Below are positions 23,248 through 45,478 of a DNA stretch of 64,000 nt, one piece after another (the first letter of the stretch is position 1; each line of letters starts with the position of its first letter). The stretch lies in assembly GCA_005223075.1 (NCBI GenBank), contig NJBO01000003.1:9902-73901 (forward strand), written 5' to 3'. The position numbers and the translations under genes are program-made. Source of the stretch: a candidate division TA06 bacterium B3_TA06. Its GTDB lineage: Bacteria; Hydrothermota; Tepidihabitantia; B3-TA06. A model generated the notes under the pieces. It had not been told where the DNA came from. It did not search any database and saw only the letters and a program-made list of their open reading frames with translations.

Positions 23248-23316
23248 CGGTGATAGCTTCAAGTTATTAAGAGTAGGGGCACGGCATGCCGTGCCCCTAC
23301 AATTTAGGAGGAAAGG

Positions 23317-26085
23317 ATGTCCCTGACGTTAGTTTTTGCGATACTTGCCGCACCCATAGATAGCCTCTGGCAGACTGAGTACGAGCACATACTTGAAGGG
23401 CTCCAGCTTATGAATCTTGAGGTTTCAGACCTGGGCTACGACAAGCTCTGGCGCGAAGACTCATTCAGGCTCGAGATCGTCAACGACCTCATGAACAACC
23501 CGCTGGACGTGCCTGACTACGTGCTTCTCTCAGGTAAAGAGATACGTGAGCTCTACCGGCCTTCCGACTACCTGAGGTTTACATGTCTGGAGCTTACCGG
23601 CAAGAGGTTCAGATCGGAGAAGATAAAAGCTGCAGATATCGAGGATGCGGTTAAAGAGGTGTTCGAATTGACCAGCCAGCATCTGGATAAGGCGTTTGAG
23701 GATTTAACCGAGGCGGAGCGCGACAGCCTCCTATACACCGCCCCTGCCTTGTGGTCTGACGAGGCCGACTCGTTAGAAAACGGCTACGCAGGCGCGCTGC
23801 ATAAAGAGTTCGGGATAGAGCGCGATACGAGTTACGGGTTGAAGCTGGTTGATCTGCTTCGCTTATCCCAGAAGGTGGATATCCGCGAGCTGCACGTTGC
23901 AGGGGCGAGTCTTGCTGATGGGGTGGAACAGATCATACCAATGGCTAAGGAGCTACTTGCGCAGGAGAACCCGCCACAGGTGCAGGTGGAGGGGGTTGAA
24001 GGAGTGGTCTACGCGGTCTACGATCTCCCCGATGGCCAGAAATGCGTTATCGGCGGACCGTGGCATAACACCTATACCGGTGATTTCGCGGTGATCATCG
24101 ATCTGGGCGGCAACGATGTCTACGAAGGACGGGCTGCAGGTGCGGTTGGCGAGCTGTGGACCGCGGTCAGCTTCGTGCTCGATCTTGCAGGAGACGACGT
24201 CTACCGCAACCGTACCAAGCTGGTTAACCAGGGTGCGGCGCTGTTCGGTGCGGCCTTATTATGGGATAAAGGCGGCAACGATTCCTACACAGGGTTCCAC
24301 ATCTCGCATGGTGCGGGTCTGTATGGGATCGGCATGTTGATCGACGAGGACGGAGAGGATTCATACAGGGCCGGGTTCTTCACCCAGGGGGCGGGCAACT
24401 TCGGATCAGGCGTTCTTGCCGATCGTGAAGGCGACGACACCTACCGCGCCTGGGACTGGACTCAAGGGTTAGGCGGCCCATGGGGATACGGGTTAATTGC
24501 CGACTACGAAGGCGACGATCTGTACTACGCTGGCGGGGTTCACATCCACCATCCCCTTACCCCTGACCAGTACCGCTCGTTCGCCCAGGGGTTCGGTTTC
24601 GGCTGGCGCGACGTGGCCTCCGGTGGGATAGGATTTTTATACGACCGTAAGGGCAACGATAAGTACATCTCAGAGATATACGCGCAGGCCACCTCCTACT
24701 GGTTCGCGTTAGGGATGCTTTTAGATGAACAGGGCAACGATTTGTACTCGGCGGCTCAGTACTCTCAAGGGTCAGGCATTCATTTATCGATAGGTGCGTT
24801 GATGGATCTGGAGGGCGACGATCACTACTTCTCGCGCTACGGTCCGTCCCAGGGTGAGGGGCACGATCTTGCGGTCGGCTGGCTTCTTGATGCCGACGGC
24901 GACGATGTGTATTACGCGTCAGGAGGTCAGGGGATCGGCCTGACCAACTCGGTAGGGATATTCGTGGACACAAGGGGTAACGACGACTACTGCTCCCGCG
25001 AGGGTCTAAGCCAGGGCGGGGCAAACTGGTCGCGAGGCACCGGGGGAGTGGGCATGTTTATCGACCTTCAGGGTAACGACCGCTACGCCGAGGAGGACAA
25101 GGGCGAAAATAACCACGTCTGGACCTCAGGCACCTTCGCCCTGGGTATGGACGTGGAGGCGGTCCAGCCGCGCAAGGAACCCTGGCAGGATACGGTTACC
25201 ACCTTCCCTGAGCTGGATACGTTAGAGACTGACTCGGCAAGGATGGCGAGGCTGTTCCACTACGCGTCGCTGTGGGAGGTGCGCGGCGACATCGGCAAGG
25301 TAAGGACAGCAAGAAGGATGCTGAAAGAGGATTACGCAGAGCAGGCGGTCTCATACATCTTCAACTACGAGTTCTGCACCTACAGCGGGCTGACGCTGCG
25401 GGCGATAGAGAAGCATTTTGCGGAGTTCAAGGACACCGCCGCCTACTATCTCTATCAAGGTCTTGAAGCAGACAACGACACCATCGTGCGCAACTCGATC
25501 TATCTCTTGGGTCAGCTGGAGATCGAGGGAGCAGCAGACACATTAATCAAAAAGCTTGAGGACAAACGCAACGACTCCCTGGCAGGCTCACTGGTCTCTG
25601 CGCTTGGGAAGTTAAAGGCAAATCAGGCGGTTCCTGCGATAGTCCACTACGCCGATCATCATAAGGAACGCATGAGGATTCTGGTGGCAGAGGCTTTCTC
25701 AAAGATAAAGGACGAAAGGGCCGTACCTGTCTTGATAGATGATCTTTCGGATCCCTACTTTACGGTCCGCGCCGCGGCGATGGCCGCTTTAGCCCAGATA
25801 GGTGAGGCGGCACTTGAACCCCTTGAGATTGAGTTGGACAAAGCACGCAAACCGGATTATCAGGCGACACTCCTGCGAGCACTGCGCAACGTCTATACGA
25901 AACTAGAGGACGAGGAGAAGACCTCAGACCTCAAGGAGCGCTTGGCTGAGCTTGCGCGGCCCTATCTTGATGCCTCCTACCCCGCACTTCGCGAACAGGC
26001 GCAAAAGCTCTTAGACGAGGTGGAAGGCCGCAGCATACTCTCTCCTACCGAGCTGTTCGGCTATCCTGAGCAAGCTTGGGATTGA
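23317..26085 (+). CDS. Large repeat protein: ~12 G(N/D)DxY repeats plus C-terminal HEAT/PBS-lyase-like repeats
   Basis: 922 aa; repeats GGNDVYEG, AGDDVYRN, GGNDSYTG, DGEDSYRAG, EGDDTYRAW, EGDDLYYAG, KGNDKYISE, QGNDLYSAA, EGDDHYFSR, DGDDVYYAS, RGNDDYCSR, QGNDRYAEE; immediately upstream of the paralog array. Confidence 0.55.
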   Translation: MSLTLVFAILAAPIDSLWQTEYEHILEGLQLMNLEVSDLGYDKLWREDSFRLEIVNDLMNNPLDVPDYVLLSGKEIRELYRPSDYLRFTCLELTGKRFRSEKIKAADIEDAVKEVFELTSQHLDKAFEDLTEAERDSLLYTAPALWSDEADSLENGYAGALHKEFGIERDTSYGLKLVDLLRLSQKVDIRELHVAGASLADGVEQIIPMAKELLAQENPPQVQVEGVEGVVYAVYDLPDGQKCVIGGPWHNTYTGDFAVIIDLGGNDVYEGRAAGAVGELWTAVSFVLDLAGDDVYRNRTKLVNQGAALFGAALLWDKGGNDSYTGFHISHGAGLYGIGMLIDEDGEDSYRAGFFTQGAGNFGSGVLADREGDDTYRAWDWTQGLGGPWGYGLIADYEGDDLYYAGGVHIHHPLTPDQYRSFAQGFGFGWRDVASGGIGFLYDRKGNDKYISEIYAQATSYWFALGMLLDEQGNDLYSAAQYSQGSGIHLSIGALMDLEGDDHYFSRYGPSQGEGHDLAVGWLLDADGDDVYYASGGQGIGLTNSVGIFVDTRGNDDYCSREGLSQGGANWSRGTGGVGMFIDLQGNDRYAEEDKGENNHVWTSGTFALGMDVEAVQPRKEPWQDTVTTFPELDTLETDSARMARLFHYASLWEVRGDIGKVRTARRMLKEDYAEQAVSYIFNYEFCTYSGLTLRAIEKHFAEFKDTAAYYLYQGLEADNDTIVRNSIYLLGQLEIEGAADTLIKKLEDKRNDSLAGSLVSALGKLKANQAVPAIVHYADHHKERMRILVAEAFSKIKDERAVPVLIDDLSDPYFTVRAAAMAALAQIGEAALEPLEIELDKARKPDYQATLLRALRNVYTKLEDEEKTSDLKERLAELARPYLDASYPALREQAQKLLDEVEGRSILSPTELFGYPEQAWD

Positions 26086-26295
26086 CGGAGCAATCTAGCA
26101 GAAAGTAAGGGCGCCTTTAGGGCATCTAAGACTCCAAAAACGACGAGTGGGAAGGGGCTACCCCAACCAAATTCTTGATATCATTTTTTTGATTTATAAC
26201 AAAAGCTCTTGACAATCATAAAATTTTGTGCATCATTAGGGATAGAAGGAAGATTTATGTCCTTCTTTCAGAAACCTTCAACCCAAGGAGGAGAT

Positions 26296-26745
26296 ATGCA
26301 TAACTCCAAAAAACTCATACTCGCCGTCCTGGCAGTTATCCTGCTGCTGGGAGCCACTCCGGCGTTCGCTCAGCTGGGCGGAACCTGGGAGGGCATAGGT
26401 AGGGGCGAAGCTTACCCGCCCTGTCACCCTCCTATACACCCCTGGCAGACGTGGAAGGGCGAGATCCCGGCCACCCAAGATGTCTTCACCGGCGAATGGT
26501 GGGATGCGGACGGCAATCACGGCACATTCAAGGGCGTGGTGGAGTTCTCACCCATTCCTGAGATAGCATACGCTGAAGGCGAATGGACATGGTACGACCC
26601 CACAGGCCACTCTCAGCAACCAATAGTCGGCGGCAAGTTCAAGATGACGTTCTACATCCTGGAAAAAAGATGCGAAGGCACCTGGACATCCATCTGGCCC
26701 TCACCCAGCGATCACGGCACCATGAAAGGCTGGAAGGTAGATTAA
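26296..26745 (+). CDS. Array paralog 1: small Sec-secreted Trp/Cys-rich protein, subtype A
   Basis: 150 aa; start placed at ATG 26296 (SD aaggagg); signal MHNSKKLILAVLAVILLLGATPAFA; PPCHPPIHPWQTWKGEIP ... GTMKGWKVD. Confidence 0.7.
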   Translation: MHNSKKLILAVLAVILLLGATPAFAQLGGTWEGIGRGEAYPPCHPPIHPWQTWKGEIPATQDVFTGEWWDADGNHGTFKGVVEFSPIPEIAYAEGEWTWYDPTGHSQQPIVGGKFKMTFYILEKRCEGTWTSIWPSPSDHGTMKGWKVD

Positions 26746-26809
26746 CCTTCCATGAAACTCGGAGGGGCAGATTTCTGCCCCTCCTCACAGATCACAAAAG
26801 GAGTAAGAG

Positions 26810-27253
26810 ATGAGTAACTTCAAAAAACTCACGATCGCCGCGCTCGCGGTGATCTTTCTGATCGGAGCAACGCCTATTGCCGCCGAGCTCGACGGCATCT
26901 GGGAAGGCCATGGCGATGGAACCTGGCGGCCACCAAGCGGCATAGTACCTGTTCACCCCTGGCAAACCTGGAAAGGCACCGTCGAGAACGGACGCTTTTA
27001 CGGGGAGTGGTACGATAGCACAGGCGCCCACGGCAGATTCCAAGGCGTCATACCATCCTTAACCCAAGAGGTAGCATACTGCGAAGGCTTCTGGACGTGG
27101 GTAGATGAAGGTTGCGACCCACCACGGGAGATCACCGTAGGTCCGTTCGAGATGGATTTTCACTACGTCATTGAAACATGCAGGGGCGCATGGTGGAGTG
27201 AACTTACCGCCGTCCCGCAAGGACACATGTGGGGCCGAAGGACAGGCCCGTAG
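26810..27253 (+). CDS. Array paralog 2, subtype B-like
   Basis: 147 aa; signal MSNFKKLTIAALAVIFLIGATPIAA; HPWQTWKGTVENG ... CEGFWTWVD. Confidence 0.7.
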   Translation: MSNFKKLTIAALAVIFLIGATPIAAELDGIWEGHGDGTWRPPSGIVPVHPWQTWKGTVENGRFYGEWYDSTGAHGRFQGVIPSLTQEVAYCEGFWTWVDEGCDPPREITVGPFEMDFHYVIETCRGAWWSELTAVPQGHMWGRRTGP

Positions 27254-27326
27254 GGCATAATAGAAACCAAGCAGGGGGCGGGGTTACTCGCCCCCTCATA
27301 AACCTAAAACCTCAAAGGAGGAACAA

Positions 27327-27773
27327 ATGAGCAACTCCAAAAAACTCATAATCGCCCTCGCCGTGATCTTCTTGGTTGGGGCAACACCTGCCTTGGCCGA
27401 TCTCGATGGTATTTGGGAAGGCTATGGTAATGGCAGCTACTACTTACCTGACGGTAGCATCATCTACCCATGGCAAAGCTGGAACGGTACTGTCGAGAAT
27501 GGAGTCTTCAGCGGCTCCTGGGAAGATGACGAAGGCAACTCCGGCGGTTTCACAGGAGGCATCACATGCTTCTTCACTACTGTCCCACCCTCATATACGT
27601 TTGCCGGCTGCGAAGGAACCTGGACGTGGATTGACCCCAGCGGCTTAGAACCCATTGAACTAGGGAGCTTCTGGATGACGTTCAACGTAGACCTTGACAC
27701 CTGCTGGGGCGAATGGTTGCCTTACACTAATGCTCAGGGTGGAACCATGTGGGGCTGGAGGATAGGAGACTGA
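27327..27773 (+). CDS. Array paralog 3, subtype B
   Basis: 148 aa; YPWQSWNGTVENG ... CEGTWTWID ... GGTMWGWRIGD. Confidence 0.7.
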   Translation: MSNSKKLIIALAVIFLVGATPALADLDGIWEGYGNGSYYLPDGSIIYPWQSWNGTVENGVFSGSWEDDEGNSGGFTGGITCFFTTVPPSYTFAGCEGTWTWIDPSGLEPIELGSFWMTFNVDLDTCWGEWLPYTNAQGGTMWGWRIGD

Positions 27774-27846
27774 GGCATAATAGAAACCAACCAGGGGGCG
27801 GGGTTACTCGCCCCCTCATAAACCTTAAACCAAAAGGAGGAACAAA

Positions 27847-28302
27847 ATGAGTAACTCCAAAAAACTCCTCATCGCCCTGGCTGTGATACTTGCAGTCGGG
27901 GCAACGCCCCTCCTCGCACAACTTGAAGGACCGTGGGCAGGCAATGGCGAAGGAAGCTGCAAGACACCCACCGGAATCACTATCTACCCTTGGCAGGAGT
28001 GGGACGGCTTCGTGGAGAATGGAGCCTTCGACGGCAGTTGGTGGGACGGCGACAACGGCGGCAACTTTCACGGCGACATAATATCCATCAGCACCCCAGT
28101 CCCACCCGCGGAACCACATGACGTAGCATACTGTGAAGGCACCTGGACATGGGTAAATGACGAGGGGGAGGAGATATCTATGGGCCAGTTCTGGATGAAC
28201 TTTGACCTCCTCTACGGAACATGCGAAGGTGAATGGTGGCCTTGCAATCGCCCTGAGCCTTGGGGCCCGGGAATCATGTGGGGCTGGAGGATAGGAGACT
28301 GA
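27847..28302 (+). CDS. Array paralog 4, subtype B
   Basis: 151 aa; YPWQEWDGFVENG ... CEGTWTWVND ... IMWGWRIGD. Confidence 0.7.
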   Translation: MSNSKKLLIALAVILAVGATPLLAQLEGPWAGNGEGSCKTPTGITIYPWQEWDGFVENGAFDGSWWDGDNGGNFHGDIISISTPVPPAEPHDVAYCEGTWTWVNDEGEEISMGQFWMNFDLLYGTCEGEWWPCNRPEPWGPGIMWGWRIGD

Positions 28303-28375
28303 GGCATAATAGAAACCAAGCAGGGGGCGGGGTTACTCGCCCCCTCATAAACCTTAAACCTCAAAGGAGGAACAA

Positions 28376-28813
28376 ATGAGCACCCCAAAAAAAATCCTGC
28401 TAACCGCTTTGGCGGTGATCCTTTTACTAGGGGCCACGCCTATTGCCGCCCAGATCGCAGGAGTCTGGGAGGGCACCGGTAAAGGCGCAGCTTACCCGCC
28501 CTGCCACCTACCTATATATCCATGGCAGAAATGGATAGGCGAGATACCAAACTCTGAAGACGTCTTTTTCGGCGAGTGGAAAGACACCCTTGACAACCAC
28601 GGCAGATTCGAAGGCAAGCCTGCACCTTACTCCACTCCTGATGCGAAGGTGTTCAAAGGCTACTGGACCTGGGAAACCCCCGAAGGGATATTCAAAGGCG
28701 GCGAATTCACGATGACCTTTTACTTCTTGGAAGGCGAATGCAAGGGCACCTGGACATCCATCTGGCCTTCGCCGGGCAAGCTGGGAACCATGAGAGGCTG
28801 GAAGGTGCACTGA
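28376..28813 (+). CDS. Array paralog 5, subtype A
   Basis: 145 aa; PPCHLPIYPWQKWIGEIP ... GTMRGWKVH. Confidence 0.7.
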   Translation: MSTPKKILLTALAVILLLGATPIAAQIAGVWEGTGKGAAYPPCHLPIYPWQKWIGEIPNSEDVFFGEWKDTLDNHGRFEGKPAPYSTPDAKVFKGYWTWETPEGIFKGGEFTMTFYFLEGECKGTWTSIWPSPGKLGTMRGWKVH

Positions 28814-28880
28814 AGCATACAACCAACCAGGGGGCGGCCCTCCGCCCCCTATAAACCTTAAACCTCAAAGGAGGAACAAA

Positions 28881-29318
28881 ATGAGTAACCCCAAAAAACT
28901 CCTCATCGCCGCGCTTGCGGTGATCTTCCTGCTCGGCGCAACGCCCCTTGCCGCCGAGCTAGACGGGTTCTGGGCAGGAACTGGCACTGGCTGCTGCCAT
29001 CCAGAGTCCACCACCATCACCATATACCCCTGGCAGACATGGGACGGCTTCGTCGTGAACCACGAGATCTTTCACGGTGAGTGGCAAGATAGCTTAGGAC
29101 ACCAAGGCACCTTCGAAGGAAGAGTCGTCCAGATAGACTCAACCTATGCGGTTTTCGAAGGCACGTGGAGATGGACTGACCCCACCATACTCATAATCCC
29201 TCCTGTTATAGGCGAGTTCCATATGGACTTCGATCTTCTCACCCGCACCTGCCTGGGCGAATGGTTCTACCATGAGGACTACGGAACCATGCAAGGACAA
29301 AAACTGGAGACAAAATAA
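28881..29318 (+). CDS. Array paralog 6, divergent B-like
   Basis: 145 aa; GCCHPESTTITIYPWQTWDGFVVN ... GTMQGQKLETK. Confidence 0.7.
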   Translation: MSNPKKLLIAALAVIFLLGATPLAAELDGFWAGTGTGCCHPESTTITIYPWQTWDGFVVNHEIFHGEWQDSLGHQGTFEGRVVQIDSTYAVFEGTWRWTDPTILIIPPVIGEFHMDFDLLTRTCLGEWFYHEDYGTMQGQKLETK

Positions 29319-29393
29319 GAAAGAACAGACAAACCAACCAGGGGGCGGGGTTACTCGCCCCCTCATAAACCTTAAACCTCAAAGGAGGAACAA

Positions 29394-29834
29394 ATGAGCA
29401 CCCCAAAAAAAATCCTGCTAACCGGTTTGGCGGTAATCCTTTTACTAGGGGCCACGCCGCTTGCCGCCCAGATCGCAGGAAGATGGGAGGGTACTGGTAC
29501 AGGCGAAGCTTACCCGCCCTGCCACCCGCCTATACACCCCTGGCAGATCTGGATGGGCGAGATCCCGCTCACTCAGGATGTTTTCACAGGCGAATGGTGT
29601 GACGCGGACTGCAATCACGGCACCTTCAAGGGCGAGATAGCCCCTTTCTCAACTCCAGAGGAAGCATACTGTGAAGGTTATTGGACGTGGGATGATCCTT
29701 CCAGCCCGTCCATCATTGTAGGCCATTTCAAGATGACGTTCTACATCCTGGAAGGAATATGCGAAGGCACCTGGACATCCATCTGGCCATCGCCCAGCGG
29801 TCCCGGAACCATGAAAGGCTGGAAGATAGACTGA
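29394..29834 (+). CDS. Array paralog 7, subtype A
   Basis: 146 aa; PPCHPPIHPWQIWMGEIP ... GTMKGWKID; 5' end nearly identical at nucleotide level to paralogs 5 and 12. Confidence 0.7.
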   Translation: MSTPKKILLTGLAVILLLGATPLAAQIAGRWEGTGTGEAYPPCHPPIHPWQIWMGEIPLTQDVFTGEWCDADCNHGTFKGEIAPFSTPEEAYCEGYWTWDDPSSPSIIVGHFKMTFYILEGICEGTWTSIWPSPSGPGTMKGWKID

Positions 29835-29907
29835 GGTATACCTCGACAGACCATCAGGGGGCGGCCCTCCGCCCCCTTACAAACCTTAAACCAAAAGGAG
29901 GAACAAA

Positions 29908-30342
29908 ATGAGTAACTCCAAAAAACTCCTCATCGCCGCGCTTGCGGTGATCTTCCTCGCAGGGGCTACGCCTCTCGCCGCCCAGCTCGCAGGAGTCTGG
30001 GCAGGCACGGGCGAAGGCTGCTGCAGCCCTCCCGGAACTACCATCTACCCTTGGCAGACGTGGAAGGGTGAAATACCCAACAGCCAAGACGTGTTTTCCG
30101 GCAAGTGGTGGGACGCAGATAGCAACCGGGGCACCTTCCACGGAAAGATAATAATCTCCAGTGTCACCGAAGCATACTGCGAAGGTATCTGGAACTTAGA
30201 TGACCCTTCAGGGGCTTCAATCATTGGAGGTGATTTCAAGATGACATTCTACATCCTGGAAGGAACATGCGAAGGCACCTGGATATCCATCTGGCCCACC
30301 GCCTTACCCGCAACCATGAGAGGCTGGAAGGTAGAACCGTAA
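29908..30342 (+). CDS. Array paralog 8, A/B mosaic
   Basis: 144 aa; B-type signal peptide with A-type body (YPWQTWKGEIPNSQDVFSGKWWD ... TMRGWKVEP). Confidence 0.7.
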   Translation: MSNSKKLLIAALAVIFLAGATPLAAQLAGVWAGTGEGCCSPPGTTIYPWQTWKGEIPNSQDVFSGKWWDADSNRGTFHGKIIISSVTEAYCEGIWNLDDPSGASIIGGDFKMTFYILEGTCEGTWISIWPTALPATMRGWKVEP

Positions 30343-30406
30343 AGTCACAACCTAGGGGGCGGGCTTGTGCCCCCTCATAAACCTCAAACCTCAAAGGAGG
30401 AACAAA

Positions 30407-30856
30407 ATGCACAACTATAAAAAACTCATACTCGCCGCCCTGGCAGTTATCCTGCTGCTGGGAGCCACTCCGGCGTTCGCTCAGCTGGCCGGAACCTGGG
30501 AGGGCACTGGTAGGGGCGAAGCTTACCCGCCCTGCCACCCTCCTATACACCCCTGGCAAAACTGGATAGGCGAGATCCCGAACTCTCAGGATGTGTTTTT
30601 CGGCGAATGGTGGGACTCGGACTGCAATCACGGCACCTTCAAGGGCGAAATAGCCCCTTTCTCCACTCCAGAGGAAGTATACTGTGAAGGCGAATGGACA
30701 TGGTACGACCCCACAGGCTCCTCTCACCAACCAATAGTCGGCGGCAAGTTCAAGATGACGTTCTACATCCTGGAAGGAAGATGCGAAGGCACCTGGACCT
30801 CCATATGGCCATCGCCCAGCGAGCACGGAACCATGAGAGGCAGGAAGGTACACTGA
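30407..30856 (+). CDS. Array paralog 9, subtype A
   Basis: 149 aa; start placed at ATG 30407 after SD aaaggagg; ends GTMRGRKVH. Confidence 0.7.
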   Translation: MHNYKKLILAALAVILLLGATPAFAQLAGTWEGTGRGEAYPPCHPPIHPWQNWIGEIPNSQDVFFGEWWDSDCNHGTFKGEIAPFSTPEEVYCEGEWTWYDPTGSSHQPIVGGKFKMTFYILEGRCEGTWTSIWPSPSEHGTMRGRKVH

Positions 30857-30925
30857 ACCTTAACGCCGAGCGGGGACGGGTTTCCATCCCCGCTCGGGAT
30901 AAACCTTAAACCAAAAGGAGAAGCA

Positions 30926-31354
30926 ATGAGTAACTCCAAAAAGCTAATGCTCACCGCCTTGGCGGTGATCTTTCTGATCGGAGCGACGCCTCTCTTCGCC
31001 GATCTCGACGGCATCTGGGAAGGCTACGGCGAAGGAAGCTGCGAGACACCCGCTGGAACCATCATCTACCCCTGGCAAACCTGGAACGGAACCGTTGATG
31101 AATACGGGTACTTCTCCGGCGAGTGGGAAGACTCGGACGGCAATCAAGGCACCTTCGAAGGCTGCATGGCGTCCCTGAACCCCCCAGTCTGCCCGGGGGT
31201 ATGGACATGGAGAGACGATTCGAGTCTCGAACCCATCGAGATGGGCCTATTCCAGATGGTCTTTTACGAGGTCCAAGGAACATGCAACGGCGAATGGTGG
31301 CCGTACTCTGGCGCTCAGGGTGGAACCATGTGGGGCTGGAGTATAGGAGACTAA
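30926..31354 (+). CDS. Array paralog 10, subtype B
   Basis: 142 aa; YPWQTWNGTVDEYG ... GGTMWGWSIGD. Confidence 0.7.
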   Translation: MSNSKKLMLTALAVIFLIGATPLFADLDGIWEGYGEGSCETPAGTIIYPWQTWNGTVDEYGYFSGEWEDSDGNQGTFEGCMASLNPPVCPGVWTWRDDSSLEPIEMGLFQMVFYEVQGTCNGEWWPYSGAQGGTMWGWSIGD

Positions 31355-31425
31355 GGCATAATAGAAACCAACCAGGGGGCGGCCATCCGCCCCCACTTAA
31401 ACCCTAAACCTCAAAGGAGGAACAA

Positions 31426-31875
31426 ATGAGTAACCCCAAAAAAATCCTCATCGCCGCGCTTGCGGTGATCTTCCTCGCAGGGGCGACGCCGCTTCTTGCC
31501 CAACTCAACGGTACATGGGCGGGCGAAGGAGAAGGCGTTTGCTCTCCGCCTCCCCCTATACCTACCGACTTCCCCATCTATGCTTGGCAGAACTGGAAAG
31601 GTCTGGTTGAGGATAATGAAGTCTTCTACGGCGAGTGGTACGATAACCGCTGTAACAACGGCACCTTCAAAGGCGAGATCGTATTCGTAACTCCCGAGGA
31701 TGCATACTGCGAAGGCGAGTGGCACTGGTTCGACGAACGCTACGACCCTCCGCGTGTCTACTACATGGGACCGTTTTCGATGAAGTTCAAGCTGGAAGAA
31801 GCAATATGCTACGGTGAATGGCGGACTTACTACAGTAATGAGAGCGGAACCATGAAAGGAGAAAAGATAGACTGA
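31426..31875 (+). CDS. Array paralog 11, divergent
   Basis: 149 aa; FPIYAWQNWKGLVEDNEVFYGEWYD ... GTMKGEKID. Confidence 0.7.
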   Translation: MSNPKKILIAALAVIFLAGATPLLAQLNGTWAGEGEGVCSPPPPIPTDFPIYAWQNWKGLVEDNEVFYGEWYDNRCNNGTFKGEIVFVTPEDAYCEGEWHWFDERYDPPRVYYMGPFSMKFKLEEAICYGEWRTYYSNESGTMKGEKID

Positions 31876-31953
31876 GGATATACCGGGAAACCGGCTAACC
31901 CAGGGGGCGGGCTTCCGCCCCCTGATAAACCCTAAACCTCAAAGGAGGAACAA

Positions 31954-32400
31954 ATGAGCACCCCAAAAAAAATCCTGCTAACAGGTTTGGCGGTGATCCT
32001 TTTACTAGGGGCCACGCCGCTTGCCGCCCAGATCGCAGGCACATGGGAAGGCACCGGAACCAGCTGCTGCTGTCCACACCCGGGCACGATCATCTACCCC
32101 TGGCAGGCGTGGGTAGGTGAGATCCCCAACTCCCAGGACGTCTTCACCGGCGAGTGGAAAGACAGCCTCGACAACCGCGGCACATTCAAGGGCGAAATCC
32201 TCTGGATCAGCACCACCGTCGCCATCGCCAGAGGTTCCTGGTACTGGTTCGATCCTACCGGTCCCAGTCACGAACCGGTCTACGGAGGCGACTTCGAGAT
32301 GAAGTTCTACGTCTACGAGAGGGAGTGCACCGGCACCTGGACATCCATCTGGCTATCGCCCAGCGAACACGGAACCATGAGAGGCAGAAAGGTACACTAA
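31954..32400 (+). CDS. Array paralog 12, subtype A
   Basis: 148 aa; CCCPHPGTIIYPWQAWVGEIP ... GTMRGRKVH. Confidence 0.7.
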   Translation: MSTPKKILLTGLAVILLLGATPLAAQIAGTWEGTGTSCCCPHPGTIIYPWQAWVGEIPNSQDVFTGEWKDSLDNRGTFKGEILWISTTVAIARGSWYWFDPTGPSHEPVYGGDFEMKFYVYERECTGTWTSIWLSPSEHGTMRGRKVH

Positions 32401-32466
32401 ACCTAAAGCCGAGGGGGGCGCAAACCCGTCCCCCTCGGGATGAACCTTAAACCAAAAGGAGAAGCA

Positions 32467-32922
32467 ATGAGTAACTCCAAAAAGCTAATGCTCACCGCCT
32501 TGGCGGTGATCTTTCTGATCGGAGCAACGCCGCTCTTCGCAGAACTCGACGGCATCTGGGAAGGCTACGGCGAAGGAAGCTGCGAGACACCCGCTGGAAT
32601 CATCATCTACCCCTGGCAAACCTGGAACGGCAGCCTGGAGTCATGGCTCTTCACCGGCCACTGGCAAGACTTGGACGGCAGCTCCGGCGGCTTCCAGGGG
32701 GCCGTCATATCCCTCGCCAAATCCGTTGAACCGCCTTACCATACGGTTGCTCACTGCGAAGGAACCTGGACGTGGATGGATCCCAGCGGCTTAGAACCCC
32801 TCGAAATGGGTCCCTTCAATATGGAGTTCAATCTGGACATTGACACCTGCTGGGGCAACTGGTACTCCTATTCTAGCCCCGGAATTGGCGGAACCATGTG
32901 GGGCTGGAGGATAGGAGACTGA
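32467..32922 (+). CDS. Array paralog 13, subtype B
   Basis: 151 aa; start placed at ATG 32467; first ~45 codons and upstream intergenic region nearly identical to paralog 10. Confidence 0.7.
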   Translation: MSNSKKLMLTALAVIFLIGATPLFAELDGIWEGYGEGSCETPAGIIIYPWQTWNGSLESWLFTGHWQDLDGSSGGFQGAVISLAKSVEPPYHTVAHCEGTWTWMDPSGLEPLEMGPFNMEFNLDIDTCWGNWYSYSSPGIGGTMWGWRIGD

Positions 32923-32942
32923 GGTATAATAGAAACCAACCA

Positions 32943-32971
32943 GGGGGCGGGCATCCGCCCCCGATTTTTTT
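32943..32971 (+). terminator. Intrinsic terminator closing the paralog array
   Basis: gggggcgg-gcat-ccgccccc followed by gattttttta; the only array hairpin with a T-tract. Confidence 0.7.
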
Positions 32972-32974
32972 AAA

Positions 32975-33012
32975 CCCCACACGGGCGCTTTACGTGCCCG
33001 TGCGGGGACCCC
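32975..33012 (-). repeat. R1 hairpin repeat (reverse orientation)
   Basis: ccccacacgggcgctttacgtgcccgtgcggggacccc. Confidence 0.65.
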
Positions 33013-33118
33013 GGACATTCAGACTCAAAGATGGAATCTAAATCCCCGGTCAGATGCTTTAATCCTTTACCCTCTTGATTTCCCCCCATAACTGGATACA
33101 ATCCCTTAGGAGAAGTTA

Positions 33119-33643
33119 ATGAAGACGGTTGTTGTTTACTATTCCCGCTACGGTAACTCGCGGGTGGCGGCGCGCTTGATAGCAAAACATCTTCAAGCAC
33201 CCGTGCACCGCATAGAGGTCAAGCGCCACAGAGGAGTGGTTAGGTCTACGTTCTCCGCCCTTTTCGGGCGTCGTCCTGAGATCAAAACCATCCCTCTACA
33301 ACCCCAGGACTGGGACCTGATGGTAATTGTTGTTCCGATATGGTCAGGCAGGCCGGCAACACCTCTTAAAACCTTCCTTGCCGAGACACGACTTGCCGAA
33401 AAGCAGGTGGCTGTGTTCTTTTCATACACCAAAACCGATCCCCACAAACGCCCTTCGCGCTGGATGCAAAAGGTGTTGGGGCACTTCGGTGCGCGGCTCG
33501 TTGCCGTAGGCGGGTACAACATCTCCCTTAAGAATCACACCGTACTCAAGCAGCGGATCTGGGACTTCCTCGCCCAGCTCCCACCCCAAGCCATCCCATC
33601 GACTCCCTCCAAGAAATCCGCCAGGCGCAGCCCTCAAAAATAG
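33119..33643 (+). CDS. Flavodoxin-like fold protein (putative)
   Basis: 174 aa; N-terminus MKTVVVYYSRYGNS resembles flavodoxin-type phosphate-binding loop. Confidence 0.45.
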   Translation: MKTVVVYYSRYGNSRVAARLIAKHLQAPVHRIEVKRHRGVVRSTFSALFGRRPEIKTIPLQPQDWDLMVIVVPIWSGRPATPLKTFLAETRLAEKQVAVFFSYTKTDPHKRPSRWMQKVLGHFGARLVAVGGYNISLKNHTVLKQRIWDFLAQLPPQAIPSTPSKKSARRSPQK

Positions 33644-33718: not shown

Positions 33719-34381
33719 TTACTTGCTCTTCATCCTCGTGGTAAGCAGACCGATAAAGGAGCTGAGTGAGCGCGTCTGCATGATGACTTTGCCAGGGCCG
33801 GTGAAGCTTGCGACCAGGCCCTCGCCCGAAAGAAGTGTGCTCTTCAGGCCGCCTACGGCCTTTACGTTGTACTGCACGTCCTCATCGAAAGCGACCATGT
33901 GCCCGGTATCCACCTTGAGTTCCTGACCGGCAGGCAGTTCACGCTCGGTCATCGCCCCGTAGGAGGACAGGAAAAGATCGCCGGTGCCTGAGATCTTCAG
34001 AAGGAACAGACCTTCGCCGGAGAAGAATGTTTTGGCGCCGCCGAACTTCGTGTCTACCTCGATGTCTCCTACCGAGCAGATGAACGAGCCGGATTGGACA
34101 AACAGGGTGTTGCCGACCATCGGGACGTGTTTGATGTCGCCCGGGACGGAAGAGGCAAGGGTTACTTCGCCTGTGCCGGTGTAGTGGTTCATGAAGAAGC
34201 TCTCGCCGCCCAGGAGTGAACGCTTGAGTGCTCCGCCAAGACCGCCTCGCATCTTGGTTTCGATGTTGATGGTACCGTCCATTGAGACCATCGCTCCGGC
34301 TTCAGCGGTAATCTTTTCGCCCTCGCCGATCCGGATCGAAAGCAGGGAAAACGCAGGTCCATACTCTATCTTGTGTTCCAT
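33719..34381 (-). CDS. AIM24/TIGR00266-like family protein (putative)
   Basis: 220 aa, Gly-rich beta-strand pattern; assignment from recalled family pattern. Confidence 0.5.
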   Translation of the reverse strand: MEHKIEYGPAFSLLSIRIGEGEKITAEAGAMVSMDGTINIETKMRGGLGGALKRSLLGGESFFMNHYTGTGEVTLASSVPGDIKHVPMVGNTLFVQSGSFICSVGDIEVDTKFGGAKTFFSGEGLFLLKISGTGDLFLSSYGAMTERELPAGQELKVDTGHMVAFDEDVQYNVKAVGGLKSTLLSGEGLVASFTGPGKVIMQTRSLSSFIGLLTTRMKSK

Positions 34382-34447
34382 TTACGCCTCCTTATTTGAT
34401 TGGCTGTGTATAATTCTCAGAATCGAGCGCTTGTCAAGCAATTTATA

Positions 34448-34483
34448 CCCCACGTCTTCACTTCGTGAAGCCGCGGGGACCCC
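34448..34483 (-). repeat. R1 hairpin repeat (reverse orientation)
   Basis: ccccacgtcttcacttcgtgaagccgcggggacccc. Confidence 0.65.
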
Positions 34484-34490
34484 GATTTTT

Positions 34491-34527
34491 GCTCCTTTTT
34501 GCCTTCGGCAAAAAGATCGCAAAGGAG
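34491..34527 (+). repeat. R8 hairpin repeat
   Basis: gctcctttttgccttcggcaaaaagatcgcaaaggag. Confidence 0.6.
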
Positions 34528-34642
34528 AAAAACACATTATCTCTGGGAATAAATCACTACGTCCTTCCGACTCCTGCGAATCAATTTCTCCGAGCCTCTA
34601 CAAGAAGGCGAAGCATTCGTTGTTTCGGCAAAAACTTCCTCC

Positions 34643-34674
34643 CTGCGATCTTTTCTCAGTATGAGAAAAGGAGC
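34643..34674 (-). repeat. R8 hairpin repeat (reverse orientation)
   Basis: ctgcgatcttttctcagtatgagaaaaggagc. Confidence 0.55.
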
Positions 34675-34719
34675 ATGTGAAAAACCGGGGCCGTGAGGCC
34701 CCGGCTCTTTGTGGTCTTT

Positions 34720-36135
34720 CTAGGGTCGGATGGTTAGAAAGTGCGTGTGCCCTCTACGGTTAATCTGGAAAAGGGCCACGTCTGCCTTCTCCAGATCACC
34801 TTTCAGTCTCTTTAACTCTTTGACGTTAGAGATGAGGATTTTGTTGACTTTAATGATTACGTCTCCGACCCTGATTCCTGCCCTGTCGGCCAGACTGCCG
34901 GGTTCGACATCCTCCACCAGAACCCCATGCTTGAGATCATATTCCTTCTTGATTCTGTCACTTATGTCTTTGACCGTTATGCCAAGGATAGATGTCTTGG
35001 TCCCTTTCTCCTCTTCGGGTACAGGCTCGATGCGGGTGGAGAGTTCCTCGCGGCCAGGGCGTTCGGCAAGCCTCAGGGTTATCTTCCTGCGTTTGCCTTC
35101 ACGGATAATATCAAGGTCTACCTTTGTGCCAGGTGCAGTGCTTGCGGCAAGCCAGCGAAGCTGATCTACCGAGGTTATCTTTTCTCCGGCAAACGAGGTG
35201 ATTAGGTCGCCGTCCTCCAGACCCGCCTTCTCGGCCGGTGAGTCGGGAACAACCCTGGTTACAAAAACCCCTTCTTCCTCGATATCCATTGCTTCAAGCA
35301 CCTCAGGTTTGACTTCCTCGAGGTATATCCCCATATAGCCGCGTGAGATCTTGCCGTGCTTGATAAGCTCGCCTGCGATATCGGCGGCCATGTCAGAAGG
35401 AATGGCGAACCCTATACCTGAGTTCGCAAGCCCGTTCGTACGGATAGCGGTGTTGATGCCGATGACCTCGCCATTGATGTTGCATAATGCTCCGCCCGAG
35501 TTGCCCGGGTTGATTGCCGCGTCGGTCTGCAGGAAGTTCTGGTAGCTTGGACCGCCATATAGGAGCACGTTACTGCGTCCCTTGGCACTTACCACGCCCA
35601 CTGTCACGGTTTGCTCAAGGTTGTAGGGGTTGCCGATGGCAATCGCCCAGTCGCCGACCTTGACCTCTTCAGAGCTGGCAAACTTCGCTACCGGGAGGGG
35701 GTCCTTGGCTTTGATCTTGAGAACGGCGAGGTCGGTCTCAGGGTCTGTGCCGATGACTTCCACGTCTTTGCCGGAGAACTCCCTGCCGTCTGACAACTTT
35801 ACTCCGATATCCTTAGCGCCATCAACCACGTGGTTGTTTGTCAGTATGTATCCTCGTTCATCGAAGATCACGCCGGAGGCGGCACCCGGAACAAACCGGG
35901 GGGCACGTGGAGCAGGGATGTCGAAGTCCCAAAATTCAAAGAACTTACGAAGTTCTTCCGGGACACTCTCCTCGTCGAAATCGAACCCCTGAACGAATGG
36001 AACCTCCTTTGTCACGGTGATACCGACCACCGCCGGCGCCACCTTATCCACCACCTCGCTGAATCCTTCAAGCGGTACAGCAGAGTTGAGTGCTGCCGAT
36101 GAGATAAGGATCAAAATGCTTAGAACTCTTCTCAT
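34720..36135 (-). CDS. htrA: HtrA/DegP-family periplasmic serine protease with two PDZ domains
   Basis: 471 aa; signal peptide; trypsin-like core GYILTNNHVV ... GNSGGAL; SD aaggagg. Confidence 0.9.
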   Translation of the reverse strand: MRRVLSILILISSAALNSAVPLEGFSEVVDKVAPAVVGITVTKEVPFVQGFDFDEESVPEELRKFFEFWDFDIPAPRAPRFVPGAASGVIFDERGYILTNNHVVDGAKDIGVKLSDGREFSGKDVEVIGTDPETDLAVLKIKAKDPLPVAKFASSEEVKVGDWAIAIGNPYNLEQTVTVGVVSAKGRSNVLLYGGPSYQNFLQTDAAINPGNSGGALCNINGEVIGINTAIRTNGLANSGIGFAIPSDMAADIAGELIKHGKISRGYMGIYLEEVKPEVLEAMDIEEEGVFVTRVVPDSPAEKAGLEDGDLITSFAGEKITSVDQLRWLAASTAPGTKVDLDIIREGKRRKITLRLAERPGREELSTRIEPVPEEEKGTKTSILGITVKDISDRIKKEYDLKHGVLVEDVEPGSLADRAGIRVGDVIIKVNKILISNVKELKRLKGDLEKADVALFQINRRGHTHFLTIRP

Positions 36136-36186
36136 CTTTTTCCTCCTTACGGTTATTATTGCAACTTTATCCTTACTCCTTACTCT

Positions 36187-36813
36187 TTACCTGTAGATGG
36201 TCTCCCCTACGGTAACGATCCACCCTTCGTCTTCTTGAGGTATATGGAACCGAGGCCCTTGTCTGAAGTGGGGGGTCTTAGCGGCCTCTAAGTTCTGCCT
36301 GGCCGTCTCATCAAGCGGGATAAGAATAACTGTATCATGCGAAGGCTCCTCATAGGCTGCAACATGTACATCTGAGTGGTTGGTTTGGGATGATTGACCG
36401 AACCCCTGAGCGTGTGCCAGCCCAAGCGGCGGGCCAAGGGGTTCGGCTGCGGGTTCAATTACCAGTGGTGTTACGGGTTCCGCTCGAGGCTCAGGAGTGG
36501 TGCTGTGGGGAAGAAGTATAAGGAGAGCTATTGCAGCACTTATTGCAAATCCCAGGACTATCCCGCGCCACAACCCCTGAGTTTTTGGAGCCTTGGAGGC
36601 AGAAATACGTGCACGGACGCCTGCAAGGAGACCTGGAGGAACCTCAACAGGCTCAAGGCTTTCTGCCAGATCCTTAATGTGAACAATCTCTGCAAGGCGC
36701 CTCTTACACCCTGAGCACCCCTTAAGGTGACTTGCCAGGTGAGTTTTTTCCGCTCCACTCAAATCCCCGTCGGCGTAGCGGGATAGGGTTGCATCAGACG
36801 GGTGTCGGCCCAT
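36187..36813 (-). CDS. Anti-sigma factor with zinc-finger (HC2-type) N-terminus
   Basis: Start placed at internal ATG 36811-36813 (SD ggagg upstream; MGRHPSDATLSRYADGDLSGAEKTHLASHLKGCSGCKRRL); ORF-track start 36855 lies inside the sigma-factor gene. Confidence 0.6.
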   Translation of the reverse strand: MGRHPSDATLSRYADGDLSGAEKTHLASHLKGCSGCKRRLAEIVHIKDLAESLEPVEVPPGLLAGVRARISASKAPKTQGLWRGIVLGFAISAAIALLILLPHSTTPEPRAEPVTPLVIEPAAEPLGPPLGLAHAQGFGQSSQTNHSDVHVAAYEEPSHDTVILIPLDETARQNLEAAKTPHFRQGPRFHIPQEDEGWIVTVGETIYR

Positions 36814-37447
36814 TGCGCCTCCGGATTCCTTTAAGTTTTTTCCGCAAGATAACACGCGAACGATGCAGGAGCGACTTGGACGAACCCGCTGTGATACCCA
36901 GGATTTCTGCTATCTCTGCGTGACGGAAACCCTGGATGTCATGAAGCACAAAGACGCTGCGGTAGCTGGGCGACAGGCTTGCAACGGCCTTCTCGAGCTC
37001 AATGCGTGCATCGTGATCGCGCTTCGGCGAGGCCATCCACTCCTGAAGCTCGACCGTCTTAAGCTTCTTGCGCCTCATTCGATCAATGCAGTGGTTCATC
37101 GTGATCCTGTATATCCAGGTCGAAAGCTTCGAACGACCGGCGAACTTGTGCAAGTTCTTGTAGACCTTAACAAACACATCCTGTGTCGCGTCCTGTGCGT
37201 CGGCACGGTTGGCAAACATCCTGTAGCAGAGGTTGTAAACCATAGCCCCGTGGTTGGCATAGATTTGCTCCAGTTTCTTTTCTCGTTCGCGCTCCCCCAC
37301 ATCACCGCGGGCTTGCTGGGCAGCCTGCCCGCTTGTTAGCGTTACCGTTAACCCCTCGGTTTCCATCACTCTCTTTTGACGTGAAGAACCCCTGAAAGGT
37401 TCGCTTGCTCGCCTGGATTTGCCCATATCACGAAGCCGATTCATCAC
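36794..37447 (-). CDS. ECF-type RNA polymerase sigma-70 family factor
   Basis: 217 aa; region 2 (IYRITMNHCIDRMRRKK) and region 4 (RSVFVLHDIQGFRHAEIAEILGITAGSSKSLLHRSR); true start may be ATG 37444 or a downstream Met. Confidence 0.85.
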   Translation of the reverse strand: MMNRLRDMGKSRRASEPFRGSSRQKRVMETEGLTVTLTSGQAAQQARGDVGEREREKKLEQIYANHGAMVYNLCYRMFANRADAQDATQDVFVKVYKNLHKFAGRSKLSTWIYRITMNHCIDRMRRKKLKTVELQEWMASPKRDHDARIELEKAVASLSPSYRSVFVLHDIQGFRHAEIAEILGITAGSSKSLLHRSRVILRKKLKGIRRRNGPTPV

Positions 37448-44151: not shown

Positions 44152-44157
44152 TTATGA

Positions 44158-44245
44158 AGTGCAATGACACAGTCATTGCAGTCCAAAAGATTTTATGGAG
44201 TGCAACGAGCGTCTCGTTGCTTGCGACAACACGGTTGTCGCACTC
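44158..44245. repeat. REP-like palindromic cluster upstream of RAYT gene
   Basis: tgcaatgacacagtcattgca and ggagtgcaacgagcgtctcgttgcttgcgacaacacggttgtcgcactcc (outer stem enclosing two inner hairpins). Confidence 0.7.
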
Positions 44246-44262
44246 CAGAATAGCGTTGTATA

Positions 44263-44817
44263 ATGAGCGATGATTTAATCTACAAGCAGCACAAACACAA
44301 TCCACCTCATCTGTTCATCCCCAAAGCCAAATACTTCATCACCGCTTCTACATACCAGAAAAAGCCTTTTCTAAGTTCTCATGAGAGCAAATCGCGTCTC
44401 CTGGAATCCATAATTAAAGGATGCGATAAATCCAACTGGTTATTGGAAGATTGGGTTATACTCGACAATCATTATCACCTGATGCTGCAAGCCCCTGAGG
44501 AGGATCCTGATTTATCCAAAATGATCAGTGAAATCCATCGCTTTACCGCTCTCTGGATAAAGAAAAATGCCTTGGAAGCGAAATCGGCTAAAAGAATCTT
44601 CTGGAACTACTGGGATAGATGTATTACTCACGAACGGTCTTACTTTGCCAGACTAAACTACATTTACTTCAACCCGGTAAAGCATGGATATGTCCCAAAT
44701 CCTGAAGATTATCCGCATGGGAGTTATTATTACAGAATAAAGACTGAAGAAGAACGCCTCAAAAAACTACAACAAGATTATCCTTGGGGTCGTGTCAATG
44801 TCAATGACGATTTCTAG
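44263..44817 (+). CDS. REP-associated tyrosine transposase (RAYT, IS200-like Y1 HUH family)
   Basis: 184 aa; HUH motif NHYHLML and YIYFNPVKHGYV region; flanked on both sides by REP-like palindromes. Confidence 0.7.
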   Translation: MSDDLIYKQHKHNPPHLFIPKAKYFITASTYQKKPFLSSHESKSRLLESIIKGCDKSNWLLEDWVILDNHYHLMLQAPEEDPDLSKMISEIHRFTALWIKKNALEAKSAKRIFWNYWDRCITHERSYFARLNYIYFNPVKHGYVPNPEDYPHGSYYYRIKTEEERLKKLQQDYPWGRVNVNDDF

Positions 44818-44910
44818 CTTGACGCAACAACACGGTTGTCGTACTCCAAAAACCCACTCTGGAGTGCAACGAGCGCCTCGTTGCATGCAACAACACGGTT
44901 GTTGCACTCC
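44818..44910. repeat. REP-like palindromic cluster downstream of RAYT gene
   Basis: cttgacgcaacaacacggttgtcgtactcc and ggagtgcaacgagcgcctcgttgcatgcaacaacacggttgttgcactcc. Confidence 0.7.
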
Positions 44911-44924
44911 AAAATAATCTGTAA

Positions 44925-45371
44925 ATGCCTGATAAGATAAAAGTGCTTTTTCTCTGCATCGGCAACTCATGCCGCTCCCAGATGGCGGAAGGGTTACTCA
45001 GACATCTTGCAGGCGAGCGGTTCGAGGTGGAAAGCGCAGGCACCATCCCTTGCTTCGTTCAGCCTAATGCGATCCAGGTTATGGGTGAACTGGGCGTTGA
45101 CATATCCGGGCAGCGCTCAAAGCACGTGCAAGAATTTCAAGGCCAGTCCTTCGATTACGTTATCTCCCTGTGCGGCGAGAACAACTGCCACTCGTTTATA
45201 GGAAAGGCAGGCCAGAGCCTGCACTGGCCGTTTTCTGACCCGATCAGCGCATCCGGAACCGAGGAGAAGGTGCTGGGTGAGTTCCGCACCGTAAGGGACG
45301 CAATCAGAGCGAAGCTGGAAGAGTTCATAGCCGACCCTGGTTCCTTCTCCTCTGATTATGGAGTGCAATGA
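44925..45371 (+). CDS. arsC: Arsenate reductase / low-molecular-weight phosphotyrosine phosphatase family
   Basis: 148 aa; CIGNSCRS P-loop (CX5R); last codons and stop are supplied by the REP copy at 45359. Confidence 0.7.
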   Translation: MPDKIKVLFLCIGNSCRSQMAEGLLRHLAGERFEVESAGTIPCFVQPNAIQVMGELGVDISGQRSKHVQEFQGQSFDYVISLCGENNCHSFIGKAGQSLHWPFSDPISASGTEEKVLGEFRTVRDAIRAKLEEFIADPGSFSSDYGVQ

Positions 45372-45407: not shown

Positions 45408-45478
45408 CAAAGGACTTTCGTGAATGTTGCTTTCATCCCCATGTCAAGTAAAATTAGCTAAAGACTCAAGGAGGAGAA

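Follow-up and report, generated by a model that had tools for sequence, protein, structure and literature searches.

Hairpins without a U-tract between the cistrons of a 13-gene paralogue array in a candidate division TA06 bacterium: possible punctuation of a polycistronic operon

The DNA analyzed here, referred to as the window, is a stretch of 64,000 nucleotides (nt) from candidate division TA06 bacterium B3_TA06, an uncultured organism represented by a metagenome-assembled genome (MAG). The window contains an array of 13 paralogous genes in tandem, all on the + strand (26296-32922; 142-151 codons each), of which gene 7 is 100% identical to CEE36_02895 of this bacterium. One dominant GC-rich hairpin is found in each of the 12 gene junctions (J1 to J12; 64-78 nt) and in the 3' flank of the last gene, and only the last of these 13 hairpins is followed by a run of T. 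The explanation favored for this pattern, which is given about an even chance of being right, is that the internal hairpins are operon punctuation: stems that RNA polymerase would read through and that may provide RNA stability, processing or insulation, a function proposed by analogy with known intercistronic hairpins.

An earlier note, made from the sequence alone, had reported GC stem-loops between the genes, and these are indeed present, with 13 hairpins at 13 gene ends and the same layout in related arrays. Folding of each junction, which the note had proposed as a check, gives free energies (dG) of -15.3 to -26.3 kcal/mol, and all 13 have the GC-rich hairpin after a gene that is characteristic of an intrinsic terminator. 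The window junctions fold more stably than their dinucleotide shuffles (z = -1.5 to -4.2). When five related loci are added to the window, the 57 distinct junctions have a median z of -3.0, and 74% of them are below -2. A stem of the GGGGGCG..CGCCCCC type is common to 10 of the 13 hairpins. Its exact form, GGGGGCG-N2-12-CGCCCCC, has nine matches where none is expected by chance, all of them within the array and none elsewhere in the 64 kb. J8 carries a one-base variant of this main stem, and J1, J9 and J12, correctly singled out before as three junctions with a different stem, have other GC stems. The J1 hairpin is also found in two related loci (L003 J4 and L014 J1). The start of the hairpin series had been placed at 26768, which falls inside the first hairpin. 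The loops were said to covary, but they merely vary, and such limited covariation as exists is in the stems. The reported variation of the loops holds, but reading one of them as GGGTTACT hides two extra pairs, one of which is G-U; the maximal stems leave mostly tetraloops (GTTA, CCCT, CCAT, GCTT and GCAT).

The last hairpin is set apart by its tail. The T-run that the note described after the final hairpin only was recovered as such: the terminal tail is GATTTTTTTA, with T7 at 32965-32971, versus 1-2 T in 8 nt after the 12 internal hairpins, whose tails are A-rich (typically CATAAACCTT) and have no T-run longer than 2. A U-tract of about 7-9 nt is thus a feature of the terminal element alone, which is classed as an intrinsic terminator, whereas the internal hairpins are not.

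The same division is seen in related loci (designated with L-numbers), which were gathered from contigs encoding homologues and from a scan of GTDB species representatives. In total, 12 arrays including that of the window were obtained from TA06, Stahlbacteria and WOR-3 MAGs, with 2 to 24 genes each, and six of them share the site between a HEAT-repeat gene and a flavodoxin-like gene. For WOR-3, a strain in culture, sy37, has been described (PMC12285271). At each of the 12 array ends, the 10 nt that follow the hairpin contain 5-8 T, versus no more than four T and no T-run above 2 after the 62 unique internal hairpins (dG of -12 or better), so that the separation is complete (Mann-Whitney p = 1e-8). 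Internal tails contain 4.8 A and 0.8 G per 10 nt. Canonical terminators with a hairpin and T are also found elsewhere in the window, at the ends of the HtrA gene (near 34720) and of the open reading frames (ORFs) 53909-54193 and 48524-50020, indicating that the TA06 lineage uses U-tracts. In vitro, hairpins without a U-tract gave no termination with the RNA polymerases of E. coli and mycobacteria (PMC3993855), and a T-tract that is strictly at array ends and absent internally fits this requirement of the tested polymerases. Because the internal stems lack the U-tract, RNA polymerase would be expected to read through them, and termination is predicted to depend on the tail (GATTTTTTTA versus ATAAACCTTA) and not on the stem.

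These tails also bear on the alternative that the internal hairpins are leaky terminators or pause sites, each of which would stop some polymerases, possibly with NusA/NusG, giving a stepwise drop in expression from 5' to 3' until the last hairpin stops the rest. The internal stems are the same as that of the terminal terminator, with an identical core in the type A stems, their A/U-rich, G-poor tails would form a fairly weak RNA-DNA hybrid, and hairpin number scales with array length. This alternative is nevertheless considered unlikely, since the tested polymerases do not stop without a U-tract, and the lack of a T-run at 62 of 62 internal hairpins versus its presence at 12 of 12 ends suggests that the U-tract itself has been selectively removed or retained. 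In addition, stopping 20% of polymerases at 12 to 23 serial sites would nearly silence the distal genes, yet their ORFs are intact.

A single sigma-70-like promoter lies 5' of gene 1 in all six arrays for which the upstream region was read. In the window, it matches the consensus at 10 of 12 positions and is conserved in L014, L001 and L006, with CATTAT or TATTAT as the -10 hexamer in close relatives, and L008 and L010 have a perfect TTGACA-17-TATAAT at the equivalent position. A promoter scan of the window junctions detected no promoter-like site in any of them, and some junctions in related arrays measure only 20-49 nt, too little for a promoter plus a leader. The proposal of the earlier note that the array gives a polycistronic transcript with one terminal terminator is thus supported, because there is one conserved promoter-like site, no junction promoter, short junctions and a T-tract at 12 of 12 array ends versus no T-run above 2 at 62 internal hairpins; as far as the sequence can tell, the 13 paralogues probably form one operon. 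The other part of that proposal, in which the internal hairpins would be stabilizers or processing sites that allow the paralogues to be expressed differentially, is a possible function. A conserved palindrome, TTGATATCA, followed by T7 (26165-26194), is located about 15-45 nt 5' of the -35 hexamer of the array. It is almost invariant in four genomes and may serve as an UP element or bind a regulator.

It is very improbable that the genes are separate transcription units, with the hairpins as true U-independent terminators and with promoters in the junctions or in the 3' ends of the preceding genes. The CATAAT or TATAAT hexamer that is found just past the stop codon in junctions after ...GWRIGD-type genes speaks for such units. 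However, it has no -35 partner and gave no match in the promoter scan, and the same hexamer is present after the last gene, where it would drive nothing; its occurrence tracks the subtype of the upstream gene. Also, the distance of about 28 nt between hairpin and ATG leaves no room for a promoter 3' of the stem, and both the 20-49 nt junctions of related arrays and the T-tracts kept at every array end argue against separate units.

The position of the hairpins is set more tightly by the following gene than by the preceding one. From the 3' end of the hairpin to the next ATG, the median is 29 nt (interquartile range 27-30), with 20-32 nt in 52 of 62 cases, and from the stop codon to the hairpin the median is 13.5 nt, with a range of 1-104. 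In the 164-nt junction L010 J11, for example, 104 nt separate the stop codon from the hairpin, and only 27 nt lie between the hairpin and the ATG. A hairpin is also present in the leader of cistron 1, where it is non-homologous to the junction hairpins and has no paralogue upstream. Its pairing is kept in L006 despite substitutions, and L008 and L010 have the same arrangement before cistron 1. Together with the junction and end hairpins, this means that each cistron is bracketed by stems, with N+1 stems for N genes. By position, the stems belong no less to the translation initiation region that follows them than to the 3' end that precedes them, and with the fixed spacing to the Shine-Dalgarno (SD) sequence and ATG, an added role in translation as an insulator or standby site is plausible. 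A median of 13.5 nt past the stop codon would probably be enough for the stems to stay folded between ribosomes. In L008, one junction is 321 nt long (10981-11301). What appears to be the remains of a decayed paralogue lies in it, with an SD-like sequence of its own, and the next gene is preceded by a second weak hairpin.

The same spacing would be expected if the hairpins were translational leader elements of the downstream cistron, in which a stem at a fixed distance (12-16 nt before GGAGG) gives a constant unstructured standby site, prevents ribosomes from scanning or re-initiating after the previous stop codon, and keeps the anti-SD-like C-rich arm off the SD. The tight ATG distance set against a stop distance of 1-104 nt, the cistron 1 leader hairpin at the same distance, and a linker between hairpin and gene that is the most conserved segment (81.5% identity) are in line with this, as are 3' arms that hold CCCCCU or CCUCC and, as read from the sequence, could pair with GGAGG if free. 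On the other hand, the same stem follows the last gene, where no downstream cistron is present, and all 11 junctions shorter than 50 nt lack a hairpin although their genes are intact. As the explanation of the array hairpins this is quite improbable, and a translational role is compatible with a role in stability.

Several observations indicate that the structure is conserved beyond the sequence. A hairpin with a dG of -12 or better is present in 67 of the 94 internal junctions of the 12 arrays, including junctions with divergent stems: in L008, L010, L021, L022 and L024, the stem sequences are unrelated to those of the window, and the hairpins are still at the same place. Within the close group (32 alignable sequences), 89% of cells are paired; a shift of the 3' partner by 1-3 columns lowers this to 51-62%. 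Double-sided changes are found in 6 of 14 pairs (19 cells). Examples are a compensatory change between J9 and J12, where pair 6 is G-C in J12 in place of C-G, as read from the sequences, and four double changes between the type A and J1 stems. At 68%, sequence identity within the hairpin does not exceed that of the flanking coding DNA (67-73%), and of all segments the spacer in front of the hairpin is conserved least (46%). In the window and 11 related loci, the main stem motif is found inside the arrays only and always on the gene strand. In addition, the arms have a polarity: of 39 unique hairpins, distant arrays included, 38 carry the G-rich arm on the 5' side and the C-rich arm on the 3' side. 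G-U pairs favor the + strand fold in 17 cases versus 8 for the - strand; in J2, for example, dG is -21.1 on the + strand and -16.6 on the - strand. Terminators for antisense transcription were considered because a consensus scan flags eight - strand stems owing to an upstream GGTTGGTTT. They were set aside: this flank is restricted to junctions behind a single gene subtype, and the - strand fold loses stability wherever G-U becomes C-A.

Recombination has probably shaped the junctions. In L003, the junctions J6 and J8 (2698-2761 and 3741-3804) are mosaics with a type-B upstream flank (ACCTTAAGCCGAG) and a type-A stem, which suggests recombination within junctions. Mantel tests showed that hairpin similarity correlates with both immediate flanks (r = 0.34 and 0.37) and with neither adjacent gene (r = -0.02 and 0.13), and correlation with the upstream gene is limited to the spacer in front of the hairpin (r = 0.32), a pattern that would be consistent with recombination in or near the stems. 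Outside the array, other co-directional junctions have GC hairpins without a U-tract as well. A perfect 28-nt GC palindrome, GTAGGGGCACGGCATGCCGTGCCCCTAC, without a T-run, is located at 23273-23300 between the co-directional DUF1015 and HEAT-repeat genes. This hairpin is precisely absent in L006, where AGAGTAGG is directly followed by AGGAAAGG, and L001 and L014 carry different stems there, indicating that junction hairpins turn over quickly in this lineage.

An alternative is that the hairpins are non-functional passengers: an ancestral gene with its hairpin terminator would have been copied by tandem duplication, the U-tract being lost or never copied so that downstream copies are expressed, and the stems would persist by gene conversion, recent duplication and quasi-palindrome correction and not by selection for a function of the RNA. 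Several window junctions are identical or nearly so (J2 = J4, with J3 and J6 similar to them), mosaic junctions such as L003 J6 and J8 exist, copy number varies from 2 to 24, the hairpin has been lost from 27 of 94 junctions without gene loss, and the U-less hairpin at 23273-23300 is present or absent between close relatives. Passengers would not, however, be expected to persist where stem sequences can no longer be aligned, with the G-rich 5' arm (38/39) and the constant ATG distance also kept in those lineages, and the hairpin before cistron 1, a gene with no paralogue upstream, is non-homologous and keeps that distance too. A low probability is therefore assigned to this alternative.

Under operon punctuation, transcription would start at the sigma-70-type promoter and end at the hairpin plus U-tract terminator (Table 1), and the 12 internal hairpins would be terminator-type GC stems that, lacking a U-tract, are transcribed through and are maintained as RNA structures on the mRNA strand, punctuating the polycistronic transcript. 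Endonucleolytic cleavage may occur in the unstructured A/C-rich linkers between hairpins and cistrons. Each hairpin would then most likely act as an exonuclease barrier, as a 3' cap for the upstream cistron, a 5' stem for the downstream cistron, or both. It may also keep the initiation region, a constant leader of about 28 nt with GGAGG, free of long-range pairing. By eye, the RNase E motif RN↓WUU has no clean match to the linker AUAAACCUUAAACC.

Some findings weigh against this explanation. The hairpin is missing from 27 of the 94 junctions, among them most of those of the 24-gene array L022, where a hairpin with a dG of -12 or better is found in only 9 of 23, showing that hairpins are dispensable. 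The tight spacing to the ATG and the loose spacing to the stop codon fit a 5'-leader role better than classic 3'-protection, and, together with the leader hairpin of cistron 1, this weakens a pure 3'-end-stabilizer function. The difference in stability between + and - strand folds is not significant (Wilcoxon p = 0.10) and only suggestive, and because the copies are related by descent and gene conversion, the counts for covariation and polarity are not independent. Moreover, quasi-palindrome correction through template switching can maintain perfect inverted repeats without selection.

A more far-reaching idea starts from the hairpin arms, with an SD-like G-rich 5' arm and an anti-SD-like C-rich 3' arm, and from their polarity in 38 of 39 hairpins and their fixed position. 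Hairpin and A/C-rich leader of about 28 nt could form a 'cistron module' that is copied with each paralogue and whose role would go beyond stopping exonucleases. The arms could gate 30S recruitment or Rho access, making copies switchable, and the repeated junctions could be the recombination substrate for the expansion to 2 to 24 copies and for the mosaicism of haemophore-like barrels, which together would amount to a built-in system of diversification and expression choice in a phylum without cultured members. This idea is speculative and seems distinctly doubtful.

The features of the array are listed in Table 1. The array is flanked by the HEAT-repeat gene (23317-26085) upstream and the flavodoxin-like gene (33119-33643) downstream. 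A family hidden Markov model matches all 13 array genes with E-values of 1e-52 to 1e-76, and in each product a Sec-type signal peptide precedes a mature domain of about 120 residues that is conserved and rich in Trp and Gly. The proteins have no match in Pfam; with a fold search on PDB libraries, the product was assigned as a secreted 8-stranded beta-barrel. The family resembles haemophores and TbpB-type barrels, is rare and lineage-restricted, and may be a more interesting object than the hairpins. On the 3' side of the array (33719-37447, - strand), conserved genes for an AIM24-family protein, an HtrA/DegP-type protease, a zf-HC2 anti-sigma factor and an ECF sigma factor are found, an envelope-stress-type cluster adjoining the secreted-protein array, and a regulatory link between the two is possible.

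Table 1. Positions in the window of the array genes, their hairpins and related elements; internal hairpins J1 to J12 are all without a T-run.
Feature	Position	Strand	Description
Sigma-70-like promoter	26209-26236	+	TTGACA, 16-nt spacer, CATCAT
Cistron 1 leader hairpin	26244-26266	+	AGAAGGA-AGATTTATG-TCCTTCT; ends 29 nt before ATG 26296
Array gene 1	26296-26745	+	
J1	26761-26784	+	GGAGGGGCAG-ATTT-CTGCCCCTCC; dG -21.2; tail TCACAGATCA
Array gene 2	26810-27253	+	
J2	27273-27296	+	AGGGGGCGGG-GTTA-CTCGCCCCCT, one G-U pair; tail CATAAACCTA
Array gene 3	27327-27773	+	
J3	27793-27816	+	Hairpin sequence as J2
Array gene 4	27847-28302	+	
J4	28322-28345	+	Hairpin sequence as J2
Array gene 5	28376-28813	+	
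J5	28829-28850	+	AGGGGGCGG-CCCT-CCGCCCCCT; dG -18.8
Array gene 6	28881-29318	+	
J6	29340-29363	+	Hairpin sequence as J2
Array gene 7	29394-29834	+	
J7	29856-29877	+	Hairpin sequence as J5
Array gene 8	29908-30342	+	
J8	30354-30375	+	AGGGGGCG-GGCTTG-TGCCCCCT, closing G-U pair; dG -15.3
Array gene 9	30407-30856	+	
J9	30866-30897	+	CCGAGCGGGGA..TCCCCGCTCGG; dG -26.3; identical in L003 J1
Array gene 10	30926-31354	+	
J10	31375-31394	+	GGGGGCGG-CCAT-CCGCCCCC; dG -17.2
Array gene 11	31426-31875	+	
J11	31901-31924	+	CAGGGGGCGG-GCTT-CCGCCCCCTG; dG -22.4
Array gene 12	31954-32400	+	
J12	32409-32438	+	CCGAGGGGGGCG-CAAACC-CGTCCCCCTCGG; dG -25.1
Array gene 13	32467-32922	+	
Intrinsic terminator of the array	32943-32972	+	Stem 32943-32962, GGGGGCGG-GCAT-CCGCCCCC, then GATTTTTTTA
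Second hairpin after the terminator	32975-33012	+	CCCCAC..GCGGGGACCCC; dispersed family, not an array hairpin
REP-like family copies	4393-4403(-), 4738-4748(-), 4949-4959(+), 5072-5082(-), 14130-14140(-), 33002-33012(+), 34473-34483(+), 46016-46026(+), 59554-59564(+)	both	

The hairpin that follows the terminator is conserved after the array end in L003, L006, L017, L018 and L020 and belongs to a dispersed family that resembles repetitive extragenic palindromic (REP) elements. Each member has (A)CCCCAC and GCGGGGACCCC as its outer parts; between them, an inner stem of 6-9 bp, variable in sequence, encloses a loop such as CTTCG or CTTTAC. Nine copies are found on both strands of the window, where 1.8 would be expected for the 11-mer by itself. 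The copies share a constant outer part and differ in the inner stem, which stays complementary; the family has no match in Rfam. In another part of the window (44150-45410), the ORF 44263-44817 has a match to IS200-like Y1 transposases (PF01797, E = 6e-8). Composite palindromes built on GGAGTGCAACGAGCG..CTCGTTGC..ACAACACGGTTGT..GCACTCC lie on either side of it, at 44187-44247 and 44825-44912, and there is a third copy at 45360-45410. This arrangement resembles a REP-associated tyrosine transposase (RAYT) accompanied by REP doublets of its own.

If operon punctuation is correct, one GC stem would have two roles: with a U-tract it would end the operon, and without it the stem would remain between cistrons, where it probably contributes to RNA stability or insulation. 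A single operon would show this pattern 12 times, and it is repeated in a dozen genomes of a candidate phylum without genetics. The 62 U-less and 12 U-tract hairpins in matched contexts offer a data set for the prediction of terminators and read-through, and the internal hairpins are possible insulator parts for synthetic operons.

Multiple known systems can be compared with the array. An Rfam scan of the window gave no match at the gathering threshold. The sole hit in 26000-33200, to a S-adenosylmethionine/S-adenosylhomocysteine (SAM/SAH) riboswitch at 32489-32526 (20.7 bits versus a gathering score of 40, E = 0.37), is located inside the signal-peptide coding sequence of gene 13 and is almost certainly due to chance. 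Integron cassettes, defined by an adjacent intI, attC sites of 57-141 bp with R/L boxes and unrelated, promoterless cassettes, were rejected, since no integrase is present, the genes are paralogous and the hairpins are 20-32 nt; the neighbors are HEAT-repeat, flavodoxin-like, AIM24, HtrA, anti-sigma and ECF sigma genes. REP elements and bacterial interspersed mosaic elements (BIMEs) are, like the array stems, short GC-rich intergenic palindromes. They are dispersed over the genome in many copies and both orientations, whereas the array hairpins are confined to arrays, have the gene orientation only and are heterogeneous in sequence. The window does hold two other repeat families that are truly dispersed. 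A genome-wide REP element has been ruled out, because all nine window matches of the stem motif and all those in the 11 related loci are inside arrays on the + strand.

Canonical intrinsic terminators resemble the array hairpins in having a GC stem of 8-13 bp with a tetraloop-sized loop 3' of the stop codon. The terminal element fits this class fully, whereas the 12 internal elements, with A-rich tails, lack the U-tract of 7-9 nt (PMC3993855). The putative 'I-shaped' terminators of mycobacteria are, like the internal hairpins, GC hairpins after genes without a U-tract, and they gave no termination in vitro (PMC3993855). Since canonical terminators are present in the TA06 window, at array and operon ends, there is no need for a U-independent mechanism.

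Stabilizers of the 5' end, of the papBA/papA and ompA-leader type, are similar in that a hairpin is located at a short constant distance 5' of each SD, and the hairpin of cistron 1 is near the predicted 5' end of the primary transcript. In papBA, a stem just downstream of the cleavage site protects the downstream segment (PMC5927463). Unlike in this type, the array stem also follows the last gene, as part of the terminator. Protective intercistronic structures that block 3'-5' exonucleases after endonucleolytic cleavage have been described in E. coli malEFG, and consecutive hairpins in menBCE (PMC5927463). The malE-malF REP and the menBCE hairpins (Dar and Sorek 2018, PMC5927463) are, like those of the array, U-less stems between co-directional cistrons that are conserved in relatives, and several are possible per operon, with one per junction in the array. 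The array differs from this class in that nearly every junction has a hairpin, at a fixed distance to the next start codon, and its cistrons are paralogues and not subunits that need a set stoichiometry. In addition, the malE-malF element is a REP of the kind spread over the whole genome, and the array stem is restricted to arrays. By sequence and analogy, the internal hairpins would most simply be classed with the intercistronic protective or processing hairpins of the malEFG, puf and Dar-Sorek type, and the pattern looks like a familiar kind of operon punctuation and not like a new mechanism.

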